A DNA stretch of 64,000 bases from Chloroflexota bacterium (GCA_022562475.1 JADFPD010000001.1:15172-79171), one strand, 5' to 3'; positions 13,202 through 56,857 are shown, counted from the first letter of the stretch. The notes: generated by a model not told the origin, from the letters alone. A program made the numbers and translations.

Positions 13202-14442
13202 TCCGGTTGCTCCCCAGAGGGTTTTTCGTCTTCGCCGGAGTATTGGCTAAAGCCCTGGTCCAGAACCCTGGCCGTAAGCTCCATCCGTTGGGTGCGGTAC
13301 TCTACTTCCGGCAGATCGCCCTCCTGGTATCGCTGGTCCAAGGCTGACACCGCCCGCACAACTGCCGCCCTCTCCGCTGGGTCCACGGTCCGAGCGGCAA
13401 CGTCCGGCTCAACGCCTGCGGGAACCGGGCGGTAGCCCCGTATAATGCCCCACAACAGCATAGCAGCCAAAGTCGCGCCCAGCGCGCTGGGAATGGCGAT
13501 CAGCCAAAAGTCGCCCCCGGTCACCGAGTTGGTGAACCGGACCCAAACTCCTGGCAGCGGCAGGCCTGTGATCTCCAACTGCAATCCCTGGCCCGGAGCA
13601 AAGTCGCGCGCCTCGTAGGCCCGGTAGGCGGTCCCTTGGACATTTATCGGAGCGATGTTGGTCAGGCCAGGCACAGCTAGATCAGGGATGCCCTCCGGCA
13701 CCCACACTTGGAATAGGTCCGCTCCTTGGGGCAGGCTTTGCCGGTAGGCAATGGTTTCATCCTGGTAGCGAAAGCTGTAAGCAAAGTTCAGACTGTGAGC
13801 TCCGGGAACAACGGGCGAGGTGAGAGCGAACCCGGTGCCGATGGACACGATGTCTCCGCCGGGGAGGTCGGATTCCACGGTCAGTTCCGAAGGGTTGGGG
13901 GGTAGGGCGAAGCGGAGGAAGCTGATTGGGTCAACTTTGGTTAGGTCGGGGACCAAGGTCCGGTCTGTGGGATTGTCGAATCTAACAAATTCAAGGACGC
14001 TGACTAGTTGGTCATCTTTGTCCAAGGCGGCAACTACCATCACATGCTGCTCCACATGGATGATAGAGGCATCCTGCGTCGTCTCGAACACGGTCAACAA
14101 TAGATCGTCGGCAAGTCCGCCGCTGTCCAGAGAAATCCCGTAGAAGACGCCCTGGTGGTCCACGCTAACGGTGTAAGAGCCTCCATTTACTATCTGAACG
14201 TCCTCAAACACGAACCTCCCCTGGGCGTCGGGCGCCGCTTGTCCGGTGCCGGCCAGTCTGCCGTCAGCGGCGGTTATCAGCATCAACACGTTAAGGTCGT
14301 CCGGTATTTTCGCGCCTTCCGTGCCGTTCACCACCTGTCCGTGAACTTCGGTGGTTTCCTGGGCCAGGAGCAAGGCCCCTTCAGAGGGGAATAGATATAG
14401 CGCTACGGCCAGAGCCGGCAACAACCACAATTTTCCTTTCAC
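13198..14442 (-). CDS. uncharacterized exported protein with beta-sandwich (carboxypeptidase-regulatory-like) region, C-terminal TM helix and SHOCT-like tail
   Basis: The GTG start at 14442 (VKGKLWLLPALAVALYLF signal-like N-terminus) overlaps the upstream stop (GTGA). HGQVVNGTEG...GRFVFEDV resembles CarboxypepD_reg. The C-terminus is a TM helix followed by LDQRYQEGDLPEVEYRTQ. Confidence 0.6.
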   Translation of the reverse strand: MKGKLWLLPALAVALYLFPSEGALLLAQETTEVHGQVVNGTEGAKIPDDLNVLMLITAADGRLAGTGQAAPDAQGRFVFEDVQIVNGGSYTVSVDHQGVFYGISLDSGGLADDLLLTVFETTQDASIIHVEQHVMVVAALDKDDQLVSVLEFVRFDNPTDRTLVPDLTKVDPISFLRFALPPNPSELTVESDLPGGDIVSIGTGFALTSPVVPGAHSLNFAYSFRYQDETIAYRQSLPQGADLFQVWVPEGIPDLAVPGLTNIAPINVQGTAYRAYEARDFAPGQGLQLEITGLPLPGVWVRFTNSVTGGDFWLIAIPSALGATLAAMLLWGIIRGYRPVPAGVEPDVAARTVDPAERAAVVRAVSALDQRYQEGDLPEVEYRTQRMELTARVLDQGFSQYSGEDEKPSGEQPE

Positions 14443-39272: not shown

Positions 39273-39301
39273 GTAGGGGCACGGCAATGCCGTGCCCCTA
39301 C
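39273..39301. repeat. palindromic element GTAGGGGCACGGC-AAT-GCCGTGCCCCTAC, probable terminator (copy 2)
   Basis: A perfect 13-bp stem followed by TATTTTG, between convergent genes (39224 + end, 39368 - end). It belongs to the same family as 9755-9782. Confidence 0.7.
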
Positions 39302-41436: not shown

Positions 41437-41598
41437 AGTGGTTTCTCCTGTTTCTTAGGCGGAATCCGAGTCTAGATCAAGCCGGTGTACGCTCAGAAAA
41501 GGCCCCGGCGAATCGGCAGCCATTATAACACAGGGGTCCCCTCTGGATTACGCCTGGCGCAGCTTCGTGCGGGACCGATGTCCGGTAAGTCGAAATAA

Positions 41599-42813
41599 CT
41601 AGATCTGAATTCCCGACGCCTTCGCAACGATGTCGATATCTTTGTCGCCCCGGCCGCTGAGGCAGACCAGGATTATCTGGTCTTGGGTCAAGGTTTTTGC
41701 CAGCTCGACGGCGGCGGATACCGCGTGGGATGACTCCAGCGCCGGGATGATGCCCTCGGTGCGGCACAGCAGATGGAACGCCTCCAACGCCTGGGAGTCG
41801 TTCACCTCCCGGTATTCAGCCCTTCCGGAGTCTTTCAGGTAGCTGTGCTCCGGGCCCACTCCGGGGTAGTCCAGCCCCGCTGAGATGCTGTGGGTCTCCT
41901 GCACCTGCCCGTGCTCGTCCTGAAGCAGATAGGACATCGCGCCGTGCAGCACGCCCGGACGCCCGGCGCTCAGGGTGGCCGAATGTTTGCCGGTACCCAC
42001 TCCTTCGCCCCCGGCTTCCAAGCCCAGCAGCCGCACGTCTTCGTCGGGCACGAAGGGATGGAAGATGCCGATGGAGTTGCTGCCGCCGCCGACGCAGGCC
42101 AGCACGTAGTCCGGAAGCCGGCCTTCGGCCTCCAACAACTGGGCCTTGGCCTCCCGGCCGATGACCGTCTGGAAGTCTCGCACCATCACCGGGTATGGGT
42201 GCGGCCCCACCACGCTGCCGATCAGATAGTGAGTTGTTTCCACATTGGTCACCCAGTCGCGGATCGCCTCATTGATGGCGTCTTTCAGGGTGCGGGTGCC
42301 CGAGTCGACCGGCACGACTTCAGCCTCCAGCAGCTTCATCCGGAAGACGTTCAGCGACTGCCGTTGAATGTCCTCGCTGCCCATGTAGACGATGCATTCC
42401 AGGCCGAGCATGGCGCAGGCAGTGGCCGCGGCAACGCCGTGCTGCCCGGCCCCGGTCTCGGCGATGATCCGCTTCTTGCCCATGTGCTGGGCCAACAACG
42501 CCTGGCCTAGGGCATTGTTTATCTTGTGGGCCCCGGTATGGGCCAGGTCTTCACGTTTTAGGTAGATCTTGGCGCCGCCGCAGACGCGGGTCAGGTTCTC
42601 GGCGAAGTACAAAGCGGTGGGCCGCCCGGCGTAGGTATGTAGCAGATGACCCAGACGCTCCTGAAATTCAGGGTCCTCCTTGGCCGTACGGTAGGCCTCA
42701 TCCAACTCCGCAACGGCGGCCATCAGCGTCTCGGGAATGAATTTCCCACCGAAATCGCCGAAGCGCCCACGGTCATCAGGAAAGCGGAGGCTGGCCTCGT
42801 TTTTATCCGGCAT
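41599..42813 (-). CDS. trpB: tryptophan synthase beta chain (TrpB1 type)
   Basis: The [19 protein letters not shown] and GGGSNSIG motifs are present. The start is set at [11 protein letters not shown] (ATG 42811-42813, GAAGGA RBS). Confidence 0.95.
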
Positions 42814-42832
42814 AGATGATTCCTTCTTTCCG

Positions 42833-43516
42833 CTACGCCGCCCTGGCGGCGGCTGCCCGGGCGATCTGCATGAAATCACGTATCTTCTGATGGTCTTTGT
42901 TGCCGTCTGTTTCAACGCCGCTGGAAACGTCCACGCCCCAGGGTCTGACGGTCATGATTGCTTCTGAAACATTTTCGGGGGTTAGCCCACCGGCCAGCAA
43001 GAATGGATGGCCCGCCTGGGAGAGGGATGCAGCCACATCCCAGTCAAACCCCTTCCCGGTGCCGCCTTGGATGCCCTCGACATATCTGTCCAGCGTTACT
43101 AGGTGCCCGACCCCGCTGAATTCCTTGACCCGGGCGCCGGTCCCCGCATCGTCGGCCGACGTAGCTGACTCTGCCACGTGCACCACTTTGATCACGTCGC
43201 AGCCGACTTGGCCGGCGTATTCGACCGTTTCCTGGCCGCAGAGCTGGGCCAGGTCCAGTCCGCAAAATTTCACTATTCCGCCAACCTCTTCGATCGGCTG
43301 GTCGGCGAAGAGGCCGACGATCCGGGGAACCGGGCCGCCGGAGTTCCTGACTCCATCGACGATGACTTTGGCCTCTTTAGGCGTGATACGCCGGCGCCGC
43401 TCCGGCACGAACACCAAGCCGATGAGATCGGCCCCCGACTCGGCGGCCACCAGTGCGTCGTCCAAGGCACGGATACCGCAGATCTTTACCCTTATATCTT
43501 GCGGGTCTATGTTCAT
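42833..43516 (-). CDS. trpF: phosphoribosylanthranilate isomerase
   Basis: 227 aa with VKICGI near the N-terminus and a TIM-barrel PRAI pattern. It overlaps trpC by 4 nt. Confidence 0.9.
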
Positions 43517-44313
43517 GCCGCCGGCGTTTTCTGCCCGGTCAGCTCCCGGACCTTTTCTCCGACGTCTGGGGCAGTCACCAGGGCCTCACCGACCAAAACC
43601 GCATTGACCCTGGAGCGTTCCATCCGCCGGAGATGCTCGCGGGTGAAGATGCCGCTTTCGCTGACGATCTGCTTGCCTCTGGGCACCAGCGGCGCCAGGC
43701 GTTCAGTCACAGTTAGATCGGTGGTGAATGTGCGCAGGTCCCGGTTGTTGATGCCGATGATGTCCGCTCCGGCATCCACCGCGGTCTCCAGCTCATTCTC
43801 GTCGTGGACCTCTACCAAACACTGCATCAAGTGTGCCTGGGCGGCAGCCAGCAGCTCCTTTAGTTGGGTCGGCTCCACGATCGCCACGATGAGCAACATT
43901 GCATCGGCCCCAGCCGCCCGAGTCTCGACAACCTGGTAGGGGTCAAAGATGAAATCTTTGCGTATAACCGGCGCGCGCTGGGAGGCCCCGGTCTCCTTGA
44001 TCTGCCGCAGGTGGTCCAGTTCACCCTGGAACCTGGGGTCGGTGAGGCACGAGATGGCCGCCGCCCCGTTGCCGGCGTAGGTCTCAGCCAACTTCAGGTG
44101 GTCGAAGTTGGGCATCAGCAGCCCTCGGGAGGGCGAGGCCTTTTTAACCTCGGCGATGAGCCGCACCCCACCACCCAGCAGCGCCCCAGACAGATTCAGG
44201 GGCCGTGGCTGGCCGGCGGCAGCAGCCTCCAAGTCGGCCAGAGAAACCTGAGTCTTGCTCTCGGCCAGCTCAACTCGCTTGGCGGCAACTATTTCATCGA
44301 GGATGTTTGGCAT
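43513..44313 (-). CDS. trpC: indole-3-glycerol phosphate synthase
   Basis: LIAEVKKASPSRG, IGINNRDL and ESGI motifs. 266 aa. Confidence 0.93.
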   Translation of the reverse strand: MPNILDEIVAAKRVELAESKTQVSLADLEAAAAGQPRPLNLSGALLGGGVRLIAEVKKASPSRGLLMPNFDHLKLAETYAGNGAAAISCLTDPRFQGELDHLRQIKETGASQRAPVIRKDFIFDPYQVVETRAAGADAMLLIVAIVEPTQLKELLAAAQAHLMQCLVEVHDENELETAVDAGADIIGINNRDLRTFTTDLTVTERLAPLVPRGKQIVSESGIFTREHLRRMERSRVNAVLVGEALVTAPDVGEKVRELTGQKTPAA

Positions 44314-44315
44314 GA

Positions 44316-44522
44316 TTAGGGCAGACTTACCTCTTCTTCGTTGACCAGACTGGTGATCGAACTTAGAAGAAATTCCCGGCCGCCCTGTATCTCCAGCATT
44401 ACCGGATTTCCGGCAGCGCTGAAATGGGTAATTACCCCGTCCGATTCTTGGGCATGGTCTGCGGGTGTCTCGGAAACCTGAATGGTCAGAATATCGACTT
44501 CCCGGTTATATTTAATCTTCAT
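44316..44522 (-). CDS. DUF2283-like small protein (putative antitoxin-like partner)
   Basis: 68 aa, MKIKYNREVDILTIQVSE..., a typical DUF2283 beginning. It overlaps the upstream gene by 11 nt and ends 2 nt before trpC. Confidence 0.65.
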   Translation of the reverse strand: MKIKYNREVDILTIQVSETPADHAQESDGVITHFSAAGNPVMLEIQGGREFLLSSITSLVNEEEVSLP

Positions 44523-44766
44523 AACGGTCCTGCCTCGCTGGATAAATGGTGATAATGACCACCTCGCTGTTCTCCTCATATACTACCCGCAAGACGTGGT
44601 CCTCATCTAGTCGGAGCCGTGCAACAAATCGTCCTCCATACCCAGGAGACGACTCATGAGGGTTGGCCATGTCGTTGATCACCCTTTCAGGATCAACCGT
44701 TAATCCCCACTGGCCTAGGAGTTCGAACTTACCTAAGGCGTGCCGCGTTAATCGGATGGGTTTCAT
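44512..44766 (-). CDS. DUF4258-like small protein (putative toxin-like partner)
   Basis: 84 aa, MKPIRLTRHALGKFELLG...VVIITIYPA, matching the DUF4258 pattern. It starts 9 nt after the trpD stop. Confidence 0.65.
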   Translation of the reverse strand: MKPIRLTRHALGKFELLGQWGLTVDPERVINDMANPHESSPGYGGRFVARLRLDEDHVLRVVYEENSEVVIITIYPARQDRYED

Positions 44767-44775
44767 GATTGTTTA

Positions 44776-45792
44776 TCAGCCCCTCGCCTGGCTGACCTCG
44801 ATCATCGACTCCATTCGGTCGTTGGCCGCGCCGCTGTCGATGGCTTTGGCGGCCAGTTGAACGCCGTCCCGGATGTTAGAGACCAGGTCTCCGACCAGCA
44901 GCACCCCGGCGCTGTTCAGCAGCACGTAGTCGCGCACCGGGCCACCGGCGCCGCCCAACAACTCCCGCATGGTCTTGGCGTTGGCCGACTTGTCGCCACC
45001 ACGCACCGCCTCGATGGGCGTGATGGGCAGTCCGGTGTCCGCCACGGATAGCGTCCAATTGCTTACCTTGCCCCCGGCAACCTCCCAGACCGAGGTGTCT
45101 CCCGAAAGGGTCATCTCGTCCAGGCCGCCGTCGCCGTGGACGATGATCGAATGATGCGTGTCCAAGAGATTCAAAACCGCCGCCATCTTTTCGCCCAGTT
45201 CCGGGAAGGCCACGCCCACCAGCATCGATTGCGCCCCCGCCGGGTTGGTCAACGGCCCCAGGATGTTGAAAACGGTGCGGATGCCGATCTCCCGGCGCAC
45301 CGGTCCGGCGTGCCGCATGGAGGGGTGGAACGCCTGGGCGAACATGAACCCGATGCCGCACTCTCTGATGCAACGCTCTACGCTCTCGGGTGTAAGCTCG
45401 ATGCGCACGCCCAGTTCTTCCAACACGTCGGCGCTGCCGCAGTTGCCCGAGGCGGCCCGGTTGCCGTGTTTGGCCACCTTCAGCCCGGCGCCGGCGGCGA
45501 CGAACGCCGCCGCCGTGGAAATGTTGAATGTGTTCAGGCCGTCCCCTCCGGTGCCCACGGAGTCGACCAACATACCGTCCACATTTACCCGCAGAGCGAA
45601 TTCACGCATGACGGTGGCCATGCCGGCGATCTCTTCGGTGCTCTCACCCTTGAGCCGGAGCGCGGTCAAGAACGAGCCCAATTGGGCCTGGGTTGCCTCG
45701 CCGGACATGATCTGCCGCATGACCGACGCAGCGTCGTCCATGGACAGATGATTTCCCGAGACGACTATGTCTATCGCTTCACGGATTTCCAA
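44776..45792 (-). CDS. trpD: anthranilate phosphoribosyltransferase
   Basis: GEATQAQLGSFLTALRLKGES and DSVGTGGDGLNTFNIST motifs. TTG start with GGAG upstream. Confidence 0.93.
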   Translation of the reverse strand: MEIREAIDIVVSGNHLSMDDAASVMRQIMSGEATQAQLGSFLTALRLKGESTEEIAGMATVMREFALRVNVDGMLVDSVGTGGDGLNTFNISTAAAFVAAGAGLKVAKHGNRAASGNCGSADVLEELGVRIELTPESVERCIRECGIGFMFAQAFHPSMRHAGPVRREIGIRTVFNILGPLTNPAGAQSMLVGVAFPELGEKMAAVLNLLDTHHSIIVHGDGGLDEMTLSGDTSVWEVAGGKVSNWTLSVADTGLPITPIEAVRGGDKSANAKTMRELLGGAGGPVRDYVLLNSAGVLLVGDLVSNIRDGVQLAAKAIDSGAANDRMESMIEVSQARG

Positions 45793-45864
45793 CGTTAAAA
45801 GGCTCCAGCGCAGTTGTTTGAGACGGCGGCTACCTCTCCGCTGATAGGCGCCGGCTTAGCTCTA

Positions 45865-46167
45865 TCAGATCGGGTCAAGTCGTTCAAGAGGCATCGCACC
45901 GTGATGAATCAGCAAAACTTCGACCCGGTCTTGTTCTGTCATCACGCGGTAAATGATGCGGTAACTTTGGGCTATTAACTCCCGGACATCATCGCTATCC
46001 CACTCGGAAACTACCCGGCCAGACCTGGGAAAATCCTCCAATCTTGTGGTGGCCTGATACAAGCGGTAATTGACCAAGCGGGCATATTCCGGGGTATCCC
46101 TTGCCATAAACAGATAGATGGCTTGCAGGTCATTCAGCGCACGCTCAGTCCAGACTACTTCAGCCAC
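45865..46167 (-). CDS. type II toxin-antitoxin system RelE/ParE family toxin
   Basis: 100 aa, reading VVWTERALNDLQAIYLFMARDTPEYA...IIYRVMTEQDRVEVLLIHHGA, which is ParE-like. Confidence 0.85.
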   Translation of the reverse strand: MAEVVWTERALNDLQAIYLFMARDTPEYARLVNYRLYQATTRLEDFPRSGRVVSEWDSDDVRELIAQSYRIIYRVMTEQDRVEVLLIHHGAMPLERLDPI

Positions 46168-46346
46168 TTTTCCATTCGGCGCTTCGCTTCTTCTTGGGAA
46201 ACAACCTGTCCACGGTCCGCCTGTTCGATCCCCTGCTCGATTTTGTAGAGGAGGTAAAGCCGTTCCATAGCTGATTCAACGGTGGCGTCGTCGGGCAAAT
46301 CTTGGATCGCCTTAAGAATTTGGTCTTTTACGCTCTGGTTACTCAT
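46155..46346 (-). CDS. antitoxin partner of the ParE-like toxin
   Basis: 63 aa, MSNQSVKDQILKAIQDLPDDATVESAMERLYLLYKIEQG. GGAGG lies 8 nt upstream of the ATG at 46344-46346. It overlaps the toxin gene by 13 nt. Confidence 0.7.
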   Translation of the reverse strand: MSNQSVKDQILKAIQDLPDDATVESAMERLYLLYKIEQGIEQADRGQVVSQEEAKRRMEKWLK

Positions 46347-46405
46347 GCACCGGTCCTCCACTAGCAATTTCCCGCCGTTACCTCAGGACGTTCCTTCTGC
46401 CAATT

Positions 46406-46993
46406 TTAACTCTTTACAGCGCTGTCCCTCACCTGGTCCAGAAAATTCTGCAGCAGGTGTTTTCCGTCGGGGGTCAAGATGGACTCGGGATGGAACTGTA
46501 CGCCCTCCACAGGGTGTTCTTTGTGCCGCAGTCCCATGATCAGGCCGTTGTCGGTCCGGGCGGTGACCTCCAGCGTATCCGGGACGGTCTCCGGGTAGAC
46601 GACCAACGAGTGGTACCGGATGGCTTCGAAGGGGTTGGGCAGTCCGGCCAGCACCCCGGCGCCATTGTGGTTCACCATGGAGGTCTTGCCGTGGCGAATC
46701 TCGCCCGCCCGGTCCACCTTCGCGCCGTAGACGTAGCCGATGCATTGGTGGCCCAGACAGACACCCAAAGTCGGCGTCTTGGGACCGAACCGGCGTATCA
46801 CATCGTTGGAGATCCCCGCCTCCAGGGGCGTGGCCGGCCCCGGAGATATGATTATTCCCTCCGGCGACATATCCTGAATCTCTTCCAGCGAGATCTTGTC
46901 GTTGCGGGCCACCTCAACCTCGGCGCCCAACTCGCACAGGTATTGGTACAGGTTGTAGGTGAAGCTATCGTAGTTGTCGATCATCAATAGCAT
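46406..46993 (-). CDS. trpG: anthranilate synthase component II (glutamine amidotransferase)
   Basis: MLLMIDNYDSFTYNLYQYL, GVCLGHQ and the catalytic H/E at QFHPES. Confidence 0.93.
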   Translation of the reverse strand: MLLMIDNYDSFTYNLYQYLCELGAEVEVARNDKISLEEIQDMSPEGIIISPGPATPLEAGISNDVIRRFGPKTPTLGVCLGHQCIGYVYGAKVDRAGEIRHGKTSMVNHNGAGVLAGLPNPFEAIRYHSLVVYPETVPDTLEVTARTDNGLIMGLRHKEHPVEGVQFHPESILTPDGKHLLQNFLDQVRDSAVKS

Positions 46994-47023
46994 GATATTT
47001 ACCTTAAAACGTTTTGGCTGAAT

Positions 47024-47464
47024 CTAGAGGGTCTCCACGAACTCCAGCCGGTTGCCATCGGGGTCCTGGGCGTAGCAGGCTTTCATCGAAACTTTACCAG
47101 GGTCATCGAGTTGGGAAGCCGGGGGATTGTTGTACTTGAGACCTTTTTTGGAGGTTTCTTCGTAGAACCCGTCCAGGTCGTCCACGAAGAAAGCCAGGTG
47201 GGCAGCGCCCAGGTCATTGCGGTTAACCTTTGGGGTGCCGCTGGACGGGGAGAGGTATTGGATCAGCTCGAGCTTGTGGCCTTCGCCCTTGTCCAACATC
47301 GCCCCGTCTATATGTGCGCCAGGAAAGGCCAAGACTTGCTCGACGAACTCGCCTTGCCGCTCGAACCGTTCGCCTATTCGCATGCCCAGGACTTCGGTAT
47401 AGAACTTCGCCGACTTGCCGATGTCTTTAACCACGAACCCCGTATGAAAGAACGACTTCAACAT
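47024..47464 (-). CDS. VOC/glyoxalase family protein inserted between trpE and trpG
   Basis: 146 aa, reading FHTGFVVKDIGKSAKFYTEVLGM...AHLAFFVDDLDGFYEE. Confidence 0.85.
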   Translation of the reverse strand: MLKSFFHTGFVVKDIGKSAKFYTEVLGMRIGERFERQGEFVEQVLAFPGAHIDGAMLDKGEGHKLELIQYLSPSSGTPKVNRNDLGAAHLAFFVDDLDGFYEETSKKGLKYNNPPASQLDDPGKVSMKACYAQDPDGNRLEFVETL

Positions 47465-47483
47465 TTTTATCTCCTAAGTATGG

Positions 47484-48938
47484 CTATTCTGAGCCTTCAG
47501 CCACATCGATGGCGCGCATCAGAGCGCCGGCCTTGTGGCGGGTCTCTTGGTACTCGTCCTCACCGACGCTGTCGGCCACGATTCCGCCTCCCGCCTGAAC
47601 GTACATCACCCCGTCCTTGTAGACGCCGGTGCGGAGCACCAACGCCGTGTCCATGTCGCCTGAATAGCTGAAGTAGCCCACCGCGCCGCCGTATGGCCCT
47701 CGTTTCTCGCCCTCCACCTCAGCGATTATCTCCATGGCCCGAATCTTCGGCGCGCCGGACACGGTGCCCGCCGGGAAGCAGGACCGCAGGGCGTCGTAGG
47801 AGGTCATTTCAGGCCGGAGGTCTCCTTCCACATGGGAGACCAGGTGCATCACGTGGGAGAATTTCTCCACGTCCATGAGCTGCGTGACCGACACGGTGCC
47901 GGGCCGGCTGACCCGGCCGATGTCATTGCGGCCCAGGTCGACCAACATGATGTGCTCGGCCCGTTGCTTCTCGCTGGACTTCAGTTCAGCCTCGTTGGCA
48001 TCGTCCTCTGCGGGTGTCGCGCCCCTGGGCCGGGTCCCGGCGATGGGATGGGTGGCGGCCCTGCCGTTATGGACCGTGACCACCGTCTCGATGGCCGCGC
48101 CCACGATCTGGAAGCCGTCCAGGTCCAGGTAGTACATATAGGGCGAGGGATTGATGCTGCGTAAAGCCCGGTAGATCTGGAACGGGTGGGCTTCGGTCCG
48201 GCGGGAGAAGCGCTGAGAGTTCACCACCTGAATCACATCGCCCGCGTAGATGTACTCGATGCACCTGTCGATTATCTTGGTGTACTCGTCCGGGGTGAAA
48301 TTGGACTCGGTGCTCGAGGAAACCAACTTCGCGCCCCCGTTGGACTGTAATTCCGGAGGCAGGTCCAGGGGTTGGGACAATCTGCGGACCATCTCGTCAA
48401 TCTTGGCCGTGGCCTCGGCGTAGGATCGTTCGATATCGCCATCCAGATGGACGTGGCTGACCACTTTTATATCGTGGCGTACGTGGTCAAACAGCAACAA
48501 TGTGTCGCAGAACATGAACACCGACTCGGGCACCCCCACCGGGTCTTCGGGCATCTCCGGGACCCTGGGCTCGAAGTAGCGGACCGTGTCGTAAGCCAGG
48601 TAACCCACCGCGCCCCCGTGGAAACCGGGCAGACCTTCAACCTTGACCAAGTGATACTTATCCATTTCTTCTTGGACCGGAATTAGGGGGTCGATCTCGC
48701 CCAATTCTTCTTTGGCGCCCGTCTTGGCCACCTTGTAGGGGTTGGTGCCGATGAAGCTGTAGCGGCCGATGCGTTCCCCTCCTTCCACGCTCTCCAACAG
48801 GAACGAATATGGGCCATGGGCCACCTTCAGATAGGCAGAAACCGGGGTTTCCAGGTCGGCGTTTATGGAACGGAAGACCGGCGCCAAGTTGCCTTGGCCG
48901 GCCATCTCCTTTATTTTTTCCAGTGTCGGTTGGTACAT
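47484..48938 (-). CDS. trpE: anthranilate synthase component I
   Basis: 484 aa with the SFLLESVEGGERIGRYSFIG motif and a C-terminal chorismate-binding domain (GAPKIRAMEII, GGAVGY). Confidence 0.95.
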   Translation of the reverse strand: MYQPTLEKIKEMAGQGNLAPVFRSINADLETPVSAYLKVAHGPYSFLLESVEGGERIGRYSFIGTNPYKVAKTGAKEELGEIDPLIPVQEEMDKYHLVKVEGLPGFHGGAVGYLAYDTVRYFEPRVPEMPEDPVGVPESVFMFCDTLLLFDHVRHDIKVVSHVHLDGDIERSYAEATAKIDEMVRRLSQPLDLPPELQSNGGAKLVSSSTESNFTPDEYTKIIDRCIEYIYAGDVIQVVNSQRFSRRTEAHPFQIYRALRSINPSPYMYYLDLDGFQIVGAAIETVVTVHNGRAATHPIAGTRPRGATPAEDDANEAELKSSEKQRAEHIMLVDLGRNDIGRVSRPGTVSVTQLMDVEKFSHVMHLVSHVEGDLRPEMTSYDALRSCFPAGTVSGAPKIRAMEIIAEVEGEKRGPYGGAVGYFSYSGDMDTALVLRTGVYKDGVMYVQAGGGIVADSVGEDEYQETRHKAGALMRAIDVAEGSE

Positions 48939-48955
48939 GCCGAAGCTCCCTTTGC

Positions 48956-49720
48956 CTAATCGTCCGCGCCGCGCCGGCCGGAAAAGAATATGACTCCCTG
49001 CTGTACTTGGTTGGGGTCGAGACCTTCGTTCTTTATGTCATTGAGGATGCCGGCGAAAAGTTTGAACCGGACATTGCTTTTCGCCGCGTTGGTTGCCGCC
49101 GTGCTGGGGCAGAATTCAGTACATTTCTCAACAAAGCCGGGCACGCCAAGCAGCGATTCTTCAAGTTCATCCGCGTATCGGAAATCCATCTGGCCTCGGA
49201 TTTGCGCCATCCGGCGAAACATCTCGGCGGCCTGGTTCTTTTCGGCCATGCAGGGAACAACGGCCCGGAAGACGCCGCCCGGCCGCAGCAGCCGGTATAC
49301 GGCATCGAAAAGGGACGGCACAGCGTCAGCAGGCAACTCTTGGACCAGGTTGAGGCTGGTGACCACATCGAAACTCTTTTCCTTGAAGGGTAACCCGGTT
49401 GCGGCGTTTCCCTCCAACAGATTCACGCCACAACCCAACTCAGCCCTGGCCAGTCTCAGCATGTGCGGCGTCAGGTCCAGACCGGCCAATAAACCCTTCC
49501 CCTGGGTACGGTCCGCCGCCTGGCGCAACAGTTGCCCGGTGCCACAGCCCAGGTCCAGCAGGCTTCCGCCGGGACGCAGAGTCTCCAACGCCCAATCGAT
49601 ACGCTGCATCAGGGCTGCACCGCTGACGAACTGGCCTCGGTCTTCGTCGTAAGACCGGCTGTACTCGCGGTAAACCGAGCGCTTGAGCGCTGCGTAGCTT
49701 GTCTTCGATTTCTGTGTCAT
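48956..49720 (-). CDS. class I SAM-dependent methyltransferase, first gene behind the T-box leader
   Basis: LLDLGCGTG motif and RLLRPGGVF. 254 aa. It ends 17 nt before trpE. Confidence 0.85.
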   Translation of the reverse strand: MTQKSKTSYAALKRSVYREYSRSYDEDRGQFVSGAALMQRIDWALETLRPGGSLLDLGCGTGQLLRQAADRTQGKGLLAGLDLTPHMLRLARAELGCGVNLLEGNAATGLPFKEKSFDVVTSLNLVQELPADAVPSLFDAVYRLLRPGGVFRAVVPCMAEKNQAAEMFRRMAQIRGQMDFRYADELEESLLGVPGFVEKCTEFCPSTAATNAAKSNVRFKLFAGILNDIKNEGLDPNQVQQGVIFFSGRRGADD

Positions 49721-49741: not shown

Positions 49742-49773
49742 TAAAAAAAGACCCGTCCATCAAGGGACGAGTC
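49742..49773 (-). terminator. intrinsic terminator of the T-box leader
   Basis: GACUCGUCC-CUUGAU-GGACGGGUC forms 9 bp including one G-U pair. It is followed by UUUUUUU, 20 nt upstream of the methyltransferase ATG. Confidence 0.8.
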
Positions 49774-50060
49774 AGATCGTGTTGCCACCCTATTTGCCGG
49801 CGGCTCCCCAATTGTAGACGGGGTTGTTCCGGCTTCTCGATCGGCGGGAGGGGCCCTGGTCTACTGTTGCCCCTGTGCCGTGGACCTTTAACGGCGCCCA
49901 ACCGTCACAGCCTAGTTCCGTCCCGATCACATCGAGGACTTAGATCGGCCTGCGGCTCCGGGGTCCATTCGTTCTTCTGCTCTGAGCGCCGGCTCACACC
50001 AAACCCGGCTCGCTTTGCCCCGCTGGAAGACTACTACTCCCCTTCACAGCCTTTATATAT
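49742..50060 (-). promoter_or_regulatory. T-box riboswitch leader with UGG (Trp) specifier
   Basis: On the minus-strand RNA, AGUA follows GGGG and the specifier context is GAACGAA-UGG-A-CCCC (UGG at 49965-49967). The T-box motif AAAUAGGGUGGCAACACG lies at 49778-49795. A terminator hairpin plus a U7 run follows. Confidence 0.85.
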
Positions 50061-50079: not shown

Positions 50080-50109
50080 AGTATAAGGTTGCCCAAAATT
50101 TAAAGTCAA
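50080..50109 (-). promoter_or_regulatory. candidate sigma-70 promoter of the T-box/trp operon
   Basis: On the minus strand, TTGACT (50104-50109) is separated by an 18-nt spacer from TATACT (50080-50085). Confidence 0.45.
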
Positions 50110-50140: not shown

Positions 50141-50581
50141 TTAAACCGTCGGTTCTCCCAGACCGCCATGCTTCACCGGAACCGCCTCGTCTGCGCCCGG
50201 CCACGGCGGAGTGGTATGGCACAGGAACCGCAGCGGCCCATCCGGGCCGGCGCTGAACTGGAAGCTCCAGCCGGTGGGAATTACCAAGGCATCGCCGGGC
50301 ATTACGTCTGCCGGTGGAATGCTCTCCGAGGCGGCATCTGGTGGGCAGCGCCAGACCTTTCCGGCGCCCTCCAATACGTACCAGATTTCTTCCACCGTGC
50401 GGTGAAAGACCGGGCTGGTGACTTCGCCGCGGCCGAGCGTAACCTCAACCAAACTACTTTTCGTTGCGCCTTGGTGGGCGTCCGCCAGCAGTCGTATCTC
50501 CGAGCCGTCGGGGGCTGTTACGTCGGGCTTTGGCTTTCGGTGCCCGTGGGGAGGAACGGGATAGTCGTTAGAAGCGCTCAT
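50141..50581 (-). CDS. cupin domain protein
   Basis: PVFHRTVEEIWYVLEGAGKVW...GDALVIPTGWSFQF is a cupin fold. The start is set at MSASNDY (the RBS-like GAAGGGG), and the upstream TTG is an alternative. Confidence 0.75.
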   Translation of the reverse strand: MSASNDYPVPPHGHRKPKPDVTAPDGSEIRLLADAHQGATKSSLVEVTLGRGEVTSPVFHRTVEEIWYVLEGAGKVWRCPPDAASESIPPADVMPGDALVIPTGWSFQFSAGPDGPLRFLCHTTPPWPGADEAVPVKHGGLGEPTV

Positions 50582-50607
50582 TTTGGCCCCTTCTATAGTA
50601 AATCCGG

Positions 50608-52041
50608 TCAAGGAGTCAGGCTTTCACCCACGAGACTCCAGTAGGGCAGGACGATGGTGAACAGCACTCCGATGGCGATCACGGTCATGATCATGCCCAT
50701 CCGGACCACTTCGGTGGCTTTGATCTCCGCCCGCTGGTAGATGAATACGCTGCCGGTGGCGCTGGCGGGATAGAAGACCACCGAGTCTCCCACCACGACC
50801 ACCGCCAACCCGCAGACCACTGGGTTCAGTCCCAGAGCCGCGCCGGTGGACATTGCCACGGGAATGATGAACGCCAGATAGCCGGAGATATTGGGCATGA
50901 CTACCCGCACGGCCGCGGCCGCGCCCGTCATCGCCAGCAGGATCAGCGCGGGGTGCTCCCGAAGGCCTTCGACGCTTCCCACCAGCGTGTCGGCGAACCA
51001 TGCGGCTGCCCCGCTGATTATCAGCGCGTTGGCCAACGACAAAGACGATGCGATGACAAAAATGTTGGCCCAACCCATGTTGGTCTCCAGCTCGCGCCAC
51101 GTAAGGAGACCCACGCCCGGCAACAGGATCACCGTCATGGCGATGAGCGCCGGCACCACGGGGGGCAGGCCGTGGGCGAAGTCGGTGAACCATAGCAAGG
51201 CCGTGCCCAAAGCGATCAACCCCGCTTTTATCTCCTTGGTCTGGACCGGGCCGGTCTTTAACTCGAACGTGGCAACGCCCTGAGCCAAAGTGAATCCCGA
51301 CCGGTACAAAAGGAATACGGCAAATCCGCCAAATATCAAGATCAGGTAAAAGGGCACGGCCATCAAGATGAACCACCTGGTCCAGGAAAAATCATCGATC
51401 AGCCCGAAATCGGCGATCAACGCCGATGCCACCACCGGGGTTATGCCTCCGGCCAACAGAGCAGTGGAACCCAAGCGGTTAAGTCCGCCCATGGCGATCA
51501 TTACCGCCCTATTTAACGGGTCGCTCTTCTTGACTCCCCAATGCTCCAACACCTGCTCATACACGTGGACCATGATGGCCCCGCGGGTGCTTGCGGAAGG
51601 GAGGGCGAAGGTCAACCCGGCGAAGGCGGCCAGCATCTGGACGTAGAGCATCTTCGGGCTTCCGCCGGCGAACCGGATGATGTAGGCGGCCATCCGCTCG
51701 GCCAGGCCTGACTGGTGCACCGCCAACCCCAGGGTGAGGATGCCCAAAAGAAAATAGGTAACGGGTTGGGAAAACCCGTACAACGCCACGGTGACGTCGT
51801 CCACGGCGTTCACCAGCACCAGTAGGACGATGCTCAACATGCCGGTCACGGCGATATGCAAGGTCTCCGTGGCCCACAGCACGACCGCCATGGCCATCAC
51901 AGCCAATGCCCGCTGTCCCTGGTCGGTGAGGCCTTCGGGGTTGGGCGCTAGGACCACTGCGAGGAATACGGCAGCCGGGAGACCGAAGCGAAAAGCCAGG
52001 GTGCCCAGTCTCATATTTCGAATAGCGGCTAGATCGATCAA
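50608..52041 (-). CDS. SLC13/DASS-family (ArsB/NhaD superfamily) anion transporter
   Basis: 477 aa polytopic permease with the two-repeat architecture typical of divalent anion:Na+ symporters. The start is uncertain (TTG at 52041 or ATG at 52014). Confidence 0.75.
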   Translation of the reverse strand: MIDLAAIRNMRLGTLAFRFGLPAAVFLAVVLAPNPEGLTDQGQRALAVMAMAVVLWATETLHIAVTGMLSIVLLVLVNAVDDVTVALYGFSQPVTYFLLGILTLGLAVHQSGLAERMAAYIIRFAGGSPKMLYVQMLAAFAGLTFALPSASTRGAIMVHVYEQVLEHWGVKKSDPLNRAVMIAMGGLNRLGSTALLAGGITPVVASALIADFGLIDDFSWTRWFILMAVPFYLILIFGGFAVFLLYRSGFTLAQGVATFELKTGPVQTKEIKAGLIALGTALLWFTDFAHGLPPVVPALIAMTVILLPGVGLLTWRELETNMGWANIFVIASSLSLANALIISGAAAWFADTLVGSVEGLREHPALILLAMTGAAAAVRVVMPNISGYLAFIIPVAMSTGAALGLNPVVCGLAVVVVGDSVVFYPASATGSVFIYQRAEIKATEVVRMGMIMTVIAIGVLFTIVLPYWSLVGESLTP

Positions 52042-56168: not shown

Positions 56169-56813
56169 ATGGGTTTCTTTGATGCCATATTAGGGTTTTT
56201 CAAAAGTGGCTCGGGGACGCCTGGCTCTCCAGGCGAAAAGGGAGATAAGGGAGATAAAGGTGATAAGGGTGACCCGGGCGAAGATGCGGTGGGTCCTCAG
56301 CTGATCAAACTGCCGGTCAACTTCGTTTTGGTTACTTCGACGCTCAACATCAACCGGATGCTTCCGGTAAGAACAGCCATGACGGACGTGAAAGCGTTCT
56401 GGGCCCTGCTGGACATTGACATCCAGCCTCGTATCTCCGGGATGGTTGCAGATGAAAACATCCTTACTTTCGATATCGCGAGTCCGGAACTCATAGACCG
56501 TCATTTCTGGGAGGTCCGGGGCAATCCATTGACCTTGTACATCGGATGGGAATCAACGAGGGTCGGCGATGACCTATTGGGGCAAGCTAGAGCTGACGGC
56601 CTCGCCATCGTGGCGGGTGGGAATGCGCTACCTGGAGGCGGCAACCTGATGGCCGATATCATCAACCATGAACTCGGCCACCTTCTGGGCCTGGGCGCCG
56701 GCCACGTAGAAGGCACATTTATGCGGGAGATTGTTGACGTGCCAAACGATACCGTTACCGCTGACCAGCGAGTGATACTCAAGGCCACTGCGTACGAGCT
56801 CGGAGGGTTTTGA
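56169..56813 (+). CDS. collagen-like (GXY)8 repeat protein with C-terminal HExxH zinc-metalloprotease-like motif
   Basis: 214 aa with the RBS GAGGAG. The collagen stretch is GTPGSPGEKGDKGDKGDKGDPGED. The metalloprotease-like motif is IINHELGHLLGLGAGH. It is AT-richer than its neighbours and I see no signal peptide. Confidence 0.65.
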   Translation: MGFFDAILGFFKSGSGTPGSPGEKGDKGDKGDKGDPGEDAVGPQLIKLPVNFVLVTSTLNINRMLPVRTAMTDVKAFWALLDIDIQPRISGMVADENILTFDIASPELIDRHFWEVRGNPLTLYIGWESTRVGDDLLGQARADGLAIVAGGNALPGGGNLMADIINHELGHLLGLGAGHVEGTFMREIVDVPNDTVTADQRVILKATAYELGGF

Positions 56814-56828
56814 CCCGTTACGGGTGTT

Positions 56829-56857
56829 CCGTTCGTGGTGAGCCTGTCGAACCACCG
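56829..56857. repeat. short intergenic hairpin element (family with 27023-27050)
   Basis: In CCGTTCGTGGTGAGCCTGTCGAACCACCG, the stem GTGGT/ACCAC flanks the conserved GAGCCTGTCGA core. Confidence 0.4.

Follow-up and report, generated by a model that had tools for sequence, protein, structure and literature searches.

Tryptophan (Trp) operons controlled by a T-box leader have been described in Firmicutes and in Dehalococcoides. In the latter, a Trp T-box in front of trpE was already reported (PMC2494555), hence the regulatory principle itself is known. These operons have a T-box with a UGG specifier and a terminator/antiterminator pair before the anthranilate synthase gene, and a core order of trpE-G-D-C-F-B. 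A tRNA-Trp T-box can also drive genes outside Trp biosynthesis, as in the at operon (rtpA-ycbK) of Bacillus subtilis, whose product anti-TRAP has a defined regulatory role. Here, we describe a T-box-led trp locus in a 64,000-nucleotide stretch of Chloroflexota DNA (GCA_022562475.1, JADFPD010000001.1:15172-79171; hereafter the window). The region is the tryptophan operon of a marine SAR202-clade bacterium of the Dehalococcoidia (Chloroflexota). It shares its type of leader, its core gene order and its class, Dehalococcoidia, with the operons described before. By contrast, it has no terminal trpA, trpE and trpG are separated by a fixed VOC gene, a methyltransferase gene (in relatives, trpS or TrpB2) stands between the leader and trpE, toxin-antitoxin (TA) cassettes occupy two junctions, and the leader scores below the Rfam gathering threshold. 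Unlike in the at operon, the extra genes lie inside the biosynthetic operon, and no regulatory role is evident for them. The best-supported description of the locus is a lineage-specific form of the known T-box trp operon type of the class Dehalococcoidia.

We consider it probable that this is a T-box trp operon in which the VOC gene has become fixed, the methyltransferase gene is decaying, TA modules turn over at two permissive junctions, and trpA lies elsewhere in the genome. All genes from the methyltransferase to trpB are on the minus strand, and our listing of open reading frames (ORFs) returned the gene order and the intergenic distances given in an earlier note on this DNA (17, 19, 30, 59, 72, 9, 2, -4 and 19 nt). 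These distances hold with internal start codons at 46346 (antitoxin), 44522 (DUF2283) and 42813 (trpB), which are also the starts in the public gene calls. Those calls (ENA ERZ27267525, 84-kb contig k141_2159653) agree with our layout except for an 84-residue ORF, which is uncalled. Families were assigned by Pfam and NCBIfam scans of the window ORFs; together with the ORF listing, they bear out the observation of the earlier note that four kinds of non-trp inserts share one Trp T-box-led unit. The methyltransferase protein is held at NCBI under a Chloroflexi metagenome-assembled genome, and its relatives bear SAR202-cluster names. An assembly chimera or artefact was ruled out because the gene order was found again in independent ENA, NCBI, JGI and Logan assemblies. 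No convincing minus-strand terminator was found inside the unit.

Table 1. Features of the trp operon and its flanking control elements, listed in the direction of transcription (positions in the window).
Feature	Position	Strand	Support and remarks
Sigma70-like promoter, TTGACT-18-TATACT	50080..50109	-	10/12 matches; upstream of leader
T-box leader RNA	49760..50056	-	RF00230, 83.8 bits, E=1.1e-18; full-length model coverage (1-219)
T-box intrinsic terminator	49743..49773	-	9-bp stem, 6 G-C pairs, U7 tail
Class I S-adenosylmethionine (SAM)-dependent methyltransferase, 254 aa	48956..49720	-	PF13649, 74.5 bits
trpE, anthranilate synthase component I	47484..48938	-	family match
VOC/glyoxalase-fold metalloprotein, 146 aa	47024..47464	-	PF00903, 65.7 bits
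trpG, glutamine amidotransferase subunit	46406..46993	-	family match
Putative antitoxin, 63 aa	46155..46346	-	position and pairing with ParE; 13-nt overlap with ParE start
ParE/RelE-superfamily toxin, 100 aa	45865..46167	-	PF05016, 59.3 bits; TIGR02385
trpD, anthranilate phosphoribosyltransferase	44776..45792	-	family match
84-aa ORF, toxin-like by position	44512..44766	-	upstream of and overlapping DUF2283
DUF2283 protein, 68 aa	44316..44522	-	PF10049, 36.9 bits; 2 nt upstream of trpC
trpC, indole-3-glycerol-phosphate synthase	43513..44313	-	family match
trpF, phosphoribosylanthranilate (PRA) isomerase	42833..43516	-	family match; 4-nt overlap with trpC
trpB, tryptophan synthase beta, TrpB1 type, last gene	41599..42813	-	TIGR00263, 646.9 bits
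Extended -10 element TGTTATAAT	41522..41530	-	in the 162-nt trpB-SDR spacer

The locus was compared with about 45 related loci, mostly from SAR202 Dehalococcoidia. They were collected by exact-protein look-ups of methyltransferase and VOC homologues, by a profile search of genome contigs with the methyltransferase alignment, and by a metagenome scan with a 17-mer around the T-box specifier. The profile search was dominated by the generic SAM-binding motif and yielded two true orthologues in 80 (L006 and L007); the scan returned 112 matching stretches, 40 of them with T-box flanks. Gene maps were drawn from local tblastn searches with the window proteins, about 10 kb was inspected on each side of each locus, and locus counts given below are not counts of phylogenetically independent events. 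The common denominator among the relatives is T-box, trpE, VOC, trpG, trpD, trpC, trpF and trpB. One locus (L202) consists of exactly these elements with no further insert, and a distant Chloroflexi locus (L192, trpE 44% identical) is a plain T-box-trpEGDCFB operon without VOC. Judged by their distribution and sequence conservation, the four inserts sort into three classes: a fixed VOC gene, a lineage-confined and dispensable methyltransferase gene, and variable TA modules. The prospect, raised in the earlier note, that the inserts might be missing from all relatives and be strain-specific hitchhikers therefore falls for VOC (present in 24 of 25 loci); the methyltransferase is patchy and the TA modules are variable.

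The T-box, which the earlier note had assumed, is real. The TTGACA...TATACT boxes of the promoter upstream of the leader are kept in L003, L004, L005 and L006. The leader itself matches RF00230, with a UGG (Trp) specifier codon at 49965-49967 in the context GAA-UGG-A, and a terminator hairpin followed by a run of U. The T-box sequence AAAUAGGGUGGCAACACG lies at about 49777-49795 and carries a UGGC bulge, which presumably suits the G73 discriminator base of bacterial tRNA-Trp. The 5' arm of the terminator overlaps the antiterminator, and the terminator ends at 49743, 22 nt before the methyltransferase start codon. The leader sequence hence has the specifier codon followed by a purine, the conserved T-box with a UGGN bulge, and the mutually exclusive terminator and antiterminator that define the class. 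A default Rfam scan of the whole window returned no match because 83.8 bits is below the gathering score of 93, and the T-box appears only under an E-value threshold; long stretches inserted between Stem I and the T-box sequence lower the score. Orthologous T-box leaders were detected in six relatives, and the leaders of the window, L003-L007, L088 and L089 score 52-84 bits, all below 93. The specifier 17-mer GAAUGGACCCCGGAGCC is at the same position in 33 of 33 aligned leaders, the stems of which show compensatory changes. Since 26 of the 33 had been fetched by the 17-mer itself, the seven loci that came from protein homology are the independent test of its conservation. From these elements and established T-box biology, we infer that a sigma70-type promoter would drive the leader, and that uncharged tRNA-Trp would pair with the UGG specifier and the UGGC bulge, such that the antiterminator replaces the terminator and transcription enters the genes.

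T-boxes with the identical specifier 17-mer also precede other first genes in Chloroflexi contigs (L130, L144, L121, L095, L164 and L167). The first genes there are trpS followed by the methyltransferase, trpS with TrpB2, TrpB2 followed by trpE, or TrpB2 alone. In L095, a GNAT acetyltransferase gene lies between TrpB2 and trpE.

We then turn to the VOC gene. It stands between trpE and trpG in 24 of the 25 SAR202-type loci that span this junction, L004 being the only one without it, and in many of them its stop codon touches or overlaps the start of trpG. The VOC homologues listed are 145-147 residues long, all but three of them exactly 146, and are at least 66% identical. Across 20 VOC homologues, the four predicted metal ligands (H7, E66, H89 and E141) do not vary, nor do many further residues, and H-E-H-E is the classical metal-ligand pattern of VOC proteins. 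The ratio of nonsynonymous to synonymous substitution rates (dN/dS) is 0.02-0.14 for VOC versus 0.04-0.10 for the trp genes, and the G+C content at third codon positions (GC3) of VOC, 0.74, is close to native. Among 1.84 billion representatives clustered at 50% identity, only seven match VOC at E<=1e-30, and the next single-domain relative is 49% identical. On these comparisons, the gene is one tight, lineage-restricted orthologous group, essentially confined to the trp context. As purifying selection on the gene is the same as on the trp genes and the protein has a metal-binding fold, the product is very probably a functional metalloenzyme made together with the Trp enzymes. A selected role is likely, given that the gene is present in nearly all operons and as constrained as its trp neighbors, and it would be an old, fixed resident between trpE and trpG.

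Membership in the VOC superfamily is clear from PF00903 (65.7 bits against a gathering score of 20.6), whereas the score with the glyoxalase I equivalog TIGR00068 was 43.3 bits (cut-off 120). In a sequence search of the PDB, lactoylglutathione lyases ranked best (E=1e-10). The AF2 model has a mediocre pLDDT of 72, which is not surprising since domain-swapped dimers are frequent with this fold, and Foldseek retrieved generic VOC proteins only, including Vibrio integron-cassette proteins. NCBIfam, the PDB sequence search, the AF2 model and Foldseek all gave only generic matches with respect to the substrate. The closest described relatives are glyoxalase I and the small single-domain VOC metalloenzymes (TIGR00068; PDB 1f9z, 6bnn, 4hc5 and 3l7t), with which the window protein shares the ~145-residue, two-module beta-alpha-beta-beta-beta fold and the H-E-H-E ligands. 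It differs from them in scoring below the equivalog cut-off, in forming its own tight SAR202 cluster, and in its trp-operon context instead of thiol or methylglyoxal metabolism. We also noted that, in L106, trpE and VOC are separated by an intact enoyl-CoA hydratase gene (L106:6333-7136), and that L007 has a frameshifted remnant of one at the same place (L007:12345-13168).

The earlier note had taken the VOC and methyltransferase genes as hints of an extra chemical step, or of a detoxification function, tied to Trp limitation. In this reading, VOC and possibly the methyltransferase would be dedicated enzymes of an extended Trp-limitation regulon, carrying out metabolite repair, detoxification or an additional step on a chorismate-, anthranilate- or indole-derived compound. 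The fixation of VOC, its tight spacing to or overlap with trpG, its invariant metal tetrad, its trp-like dN/dS, and the near-restriction of its tight orthologous cluster to trp operons all favor such a role. On the other hand, no family or structure match points to a substrate, the L004 lineage lacks VOC, and VOC-fold genes are common cargo of mobile cassettes, as the Vibrio integron-cassette proteins among the Foldseek matches illustrate. What remains to be weighed is the methyltransferase.

The slot between the T-box and trpE holds an intact methyltransferase gene in 16 loci, a frameshifted one in five (on those of the contigs where trpE can be read, it is intact), and an internally deleted or truncated one in three; in at least 11 loci it is empty, and trpE follows the T-box directly. 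No methyltransferase gene was called in two more long loci. In other lineages, the slot is filled by trpS followed by the methyltransferase (L130), TrpB2 followed by trpE (L121 and L095), or trpS with TrpB2 (L144). The description of the methyltransferase as the first T-box-controlled gene, given in the earlier note, is accurate for the window but does not extend to an obligatory feature of the operon: the slot is empty in at least 11 relatives, the gene is decayed in eight, and trpS or TrpB2 is found there elsewhere. Wherever the upstream region is readable, the methyltransferase is under a Trp T-box, except in the outgroup L086. Intact copies have a dN/dS of 0.13-0.30, which indicates purifying but relaxed selection at 2-4 times the trp values, and the protein diverges faster than the Trp enzymes (for example, 48% identity where trpE is 78% identical).

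The family comprises 96 clusters down to about 42% identity, below which matches are to generic methyltransferases. Its motif LLDLGCG(S/T)G is invariant or nearly so (D56, G58, C59 and G60 invariant; L54, L55 and L57 in at least 90%), in agreement with a class I SAM-dependent methyltransferase; no NCBIfam equivalog was reached. The AF2 model has a pLDDT of 88.6, and the top Foldseek matches are small-molecule methyltransferases: phosphoethanolamine N-methyltransferase, TleD, RebM/AtmM, MitM and geranyl diphosphate (GPP) methyltransferase, with TM-scores of 0.6-0.75 and identities of at most 21%. NCBIfam, the PDB sequence search, AF2 and Foldseek gave generic matches only and allow no inference of a substrate. 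The most distant member, in L086 (L086:3765-4499), is 43% identical and starts 31 nt after an M20 peptidase gene, which leaves no room for a T-box; it is preceded by nitroreductase and M20 peptidase genes, and the contig ends right after it.

For a regulon of dedicated enzymes, the purifying selection on intact methyltransferase copies (dN/dS below 0.3), their constant position under the T-box save in L086, and the likeness of the fold to small-molecule methyltransferases, including enzymes that act on indole-derived natural products (TleD and RebM/AtmM), are favorable. Nevertheless, more than half of the related operons have no methyltransferase gene or only a truncated or frameshifted one, hence the gene does not encode a required step. 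Moreover, a methyltransferase that consumes Trp or anthranilate would be counter-productive under Trp starvation. Profile and structure searches of both proteins, being generic in outcome, gave no evidence for an additional reaction or a detoxification role linked to Trp limitation. We therefore regard the extended regulon as somewhat unlikely, and the functional hint of the earlier note as plausible for VOC only. The methyltransferase would rather be a lineage-confined accessory gene, functional where intact, dispensable, and repeatedly lost.

Next, we consider the TA modules. The trpG/trpD junction is occupied in 12 of 20 loci and the trpD/trpC junction in 10 of 19; the trpC/trpF junction, usually a 4-nt overlap, is never occupied. 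At least five module types recur at the first two. Between trpG and trpD, we found ParE with a partner of the 63-residue type (several loci, twice in tandem in L089), HicB/HicA plus a ParE module (L004), DUF4258 with an MqsA-like zinc-finger protein (L007 and L138), DUF4258 with DUF2283 (L087), and a PEBP-domain lipoprotein (L005, L007 and L169). Between trpD and trpC, the cargo is the 84-residue ORF with DUF2283, DUF2283 alone, a zinc-ribbon protein with a membrane protein, or a phosphodiesterase with a DedA-type protein.

In the window, the ParE score (PF05016, 59.3 bits against a gathering score of 23) and the overlapping upstream partner identify a type II TA module. The 63-residue partner has no family match in Pfam or NCBIfam and is called an antitoxin solely because of its position and its conserved pairing with ParE, a pairing seen in five other loci, L004, L088, L089 and L203 among them. 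At the second junction, DUF2283 reaches 36.9 bits (PF10049, gathering score 23). The DUF4258 label that the earlier note gave to the 84-residue ORF did not survive: the window copy has no Pfam match (PF14076, E<=1), one homologue reaches E=0.037 and 14.7 bits against a threshold of 25, and an hhalign comparison with the bona fide DUF4258 protein of L007 returned a probability of 0.6%, which leaves this identity without support. Its position upstream of and overlapping DUF2283 suggests a toxin role. Homologues of this ORF stand at the corresponding place in L087, L088, L169, L003 and L005, the L003 copy having an internal stop and the L005 copy being truncated; the ORF is absent in L007 and L160.

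Several observations fit selfish cassettes. The TA genes in the window have a GC3 of 0.54-0.61, and the trp genes one of 0.73-0.84. Between loci, ParE identity is only 33-39%, next to trpG genes that are 80-85% identical, which suggests that the modules were acquired independently or evolve very fast. Toxins are decayed beside intact antitoxins in L003, L005, L197 and L006. In L197, the assembly of which contains no N bases, a palindromic repeat (L197:3884-4157) takes the place of ParE beyond residue 24 and the antitoxin is intact; ParE of L006 is probably likewise replaced (~13560-13850), a weak case owing to many N bases. We propose that the ParE module and the module of the 84-residue ORF and DUF2283 would be selfish type II TA cassettes at trpG/trpD and trpD/trpC, that they would be transcribed along with the operon, possibly from promoters of their own as well, and that the toxin tends to be lost first. 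More generally, non-trp genes would accumulate at permissive intergenic junctions of the trpE-trpG-trpD-trpC-trpF-trpB core.

These modules resemble chromosomal type II TA cassettes (ParDE, HicAB and DUF4258/DUF2283-type, for example, in Vibrio superintegron arrays) in being small, overlapping two-gene units of foreign base composition, patchy among close relatives and interspersed among unrelated genes, and in the decay of the toxin while the antitoxin is kept. By contrast, the junctions here showed neither an integrase nor attC-like repeats or target duplications, and the cassettes sit at two specific junctions inside a housekeeping biosynthetic operon under riboswitch-like control. A comparison of filled with empty junctions likewise showed no target-site duplications or shared repeats at the insertion points. 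The palindromic repeats noted above have translations of the type VSLSNH..PFDRLRVSG / LRQAQGER; related repeats fill a 2.3-kb trpF-trpB gap in L088 (15613-17964), and a copy-like ORF is present in the window at ~56628-56855. Separately, the module-less trpD/trpC spacers (50-64 nt) of L141, L146, L122, L006 and L101 share the motif GAAGTATAATGC(G/T)AGTCTGGA with a perfect TATAAT, which could be an internal promoter before trpC or the scar of a lost module.

Alternatively, the TA modules might be wired into the operon. T-box read-through would raise toxin levels and couple uncharged tRNA-Trp to growth arrest, or addiction would guard the trp genes against deletion in a genome under streamlining pressure. 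That at least five TA types have settled at the same two junctions across lineages is consistent with this idea, as is the strong conservation of DUF2283 beside trpC. In the 64-kb window and nine 20-kb loci, homologues of the TA families were found only inside the operon, not in the ~10-kb flanks or in the rest of the window, and no other paired small ORFs were seen in the 64-kb window. However, the search seeds were taken from the operons themselves, hence this test of enrichment is biased. Furthermore, the junctions are empty in many close relatives (trpG/trpD in 8 of 20, trpD/trpC in 9 of 19), the toxins have been inactivated repeatedly, and the modules are compositionally foreign. We judge a wired-in function distinctly unlikely, and turnover of selfish cassettes at permissive junctions is the reading that we retain.

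The end of the operon is its other departure from the canonical arrangement. As stated in the earlier note, trpB is of the canonical TrpB1 type (646.9 bits with TIGR00263, for which the cut-off is 392); with the TrpB2 model TIGR01415, it scored only 200 bits (cut-off 519). The absence of trpA from the locus was upheld as well, with none found in the 64-kb window. A motif regular expression had no match in the window, and neither the window nor 201 loci had a tblastn match to an E. coli TrpA query, which was not a database sequence. No member of the tryptophan-synthase alpha family is among the annotated long loci, including two added later, and trpA is unlinked in every relative with a readable region after trpB. 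A literature search on trpA, tryptophan or auxotrophy in SAR202 or Dehalococcoidia returned nothing usable. Compared with a contiguous trpEGDCFBA operon, in which trpA follows trpB, the locus contains E, G, D, C, F and B. TrpB1 normally partners TrpA, and we know of no other fate of indole-3-glycerol phosphate; for these two reasons, a trpA gene is expected elsewhere in the genome.

It is also conceivable that trpA is truly lost and that an inserted gene, most plausibly the metal-dependent VOC, supplies the indole-3-glycerol-phosphate lyase by non-orthologous displacement. The lack of trpA in the window, the 201 loci and the annotated long loci would fit, and VOC co-occurs with the trpA-less architecture in 24 of 25 loci. 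Against this, the trpB product is of the type that pairs with TrpA, L004 has no VOC and still no linked trpA, and we know of no VOC-fold retro-aldolase acting on indole-3-glycerol phosphate. With only ~10 kb inspected per side, an unlinked trpA is by far the simpler explanation, and we consider displacement highly improbable.

Downstream of trpB, an SDR gene and a class V aminotransferase gene form the next transcription unit. The earlier note assigned the SDR gene its own upstream region, and the 162-nt spacer does contain a conserved extended -10 element, TGTTATAAT, kept in seven of eight aligned trpB-SDR spacers. Membership of the SDR and aminotransferase genes in the operon was ruled out on the conserved TGnTATAAT in the spacer and on their location elsewhere, or absence, in L004 and L089. 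The operon most likely ends at trpB, to judge from this spacer. Just after the aminotransferase gene, a perfect 13-bp G+C-rich palindromic hairpin (window 39273-39301) is likely a bidirectional terminator closing the SDR-aminotransferase unit. In L202, an MmeI/Eco57I-type restriction-modification gene on the opposite strand lies between trpB and SDR (L202:15145-17741).

On the other side of the operon, a block of enoyl-CoA hydratase, Na/sulfate-type symporter and cupin genes (window 50141-52041 and upstream) lies directly upstream of the trp promoter, with the end of the cupin gene ~30 nt before it. The block is syntenic in the SAR202 relatives L003, L004, L005, L087, L202 and L203.

Collectively, our results favor a T-box trp operon with a fixed VOC gene, a decaying methyltransferase gene, TA turnover at two junctions and an unlinked trpA, but several points weigh against it. 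Co-transcription of the whole unit from leader to trpB is suggested by gene spacing and by the lack of internal terminators. The methyltransferase frameshifts are in metagenome assemblies, and some of them may be sequencing errors; the window leader, too, stays under the RF00230 gathering score. Selfish hitchhiking leaves the constraint on DUF2283 unexplained: its dN/dS is 0.05-0.09, and it is always 2-6 nt before trpC, even where the partner ORF is dead or gone, thus DUF2283 may have been domesticated. Lastly, the repeated filling of the same two junctions could reflect selection and not mere permissiveness.

A more far-reaching reading would have VOC acting on the Trp pathway, as a lineage-fixed operon component not recognized before, and the two junctions serving as selected landing sites for TA modules, which would tie toxin dosage to uncharged tRNA-Trp or protect the operon from deletion. 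VOC, a metal-dependent protein of ~146 residues that might be co-translated between TrpE and TrpG, might then act in the repair or detoxification of a reactive pathway intermediate or by-product; taken to its extreme, this reading would have it perform the missing TrpA-type lyase step. We hold this combination to be unlikely, and prefer fixation of VOC alongside methyltransferase decay and TA turnover.

In the dark ocean, SAR202 bacteria rank among the most abundant bacteria, and they are uncultured, so operon structure is one of few handles on their physiology. Since their T-boxes score below the Rfam gathering threshold and trpA is unlinked, automatic annotation of this clade may overlook the regulation and misjudge Trp prototrophy. 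The locus amounts to a natural experiment in which a housekeeping operon under a single RNA switch gains foreign genes, with VOC becoming fixed, the methyltransferase decaying and the TA modules turning over. It offers, in VOC, a well-defined candidate for a new enzyme tied to anthranilate synthase or Trp biosynthesis, and the TA pattern raises the question of whether addiction modules preferentially lodge in, or stabilize, essential operons of streamlined genomes.

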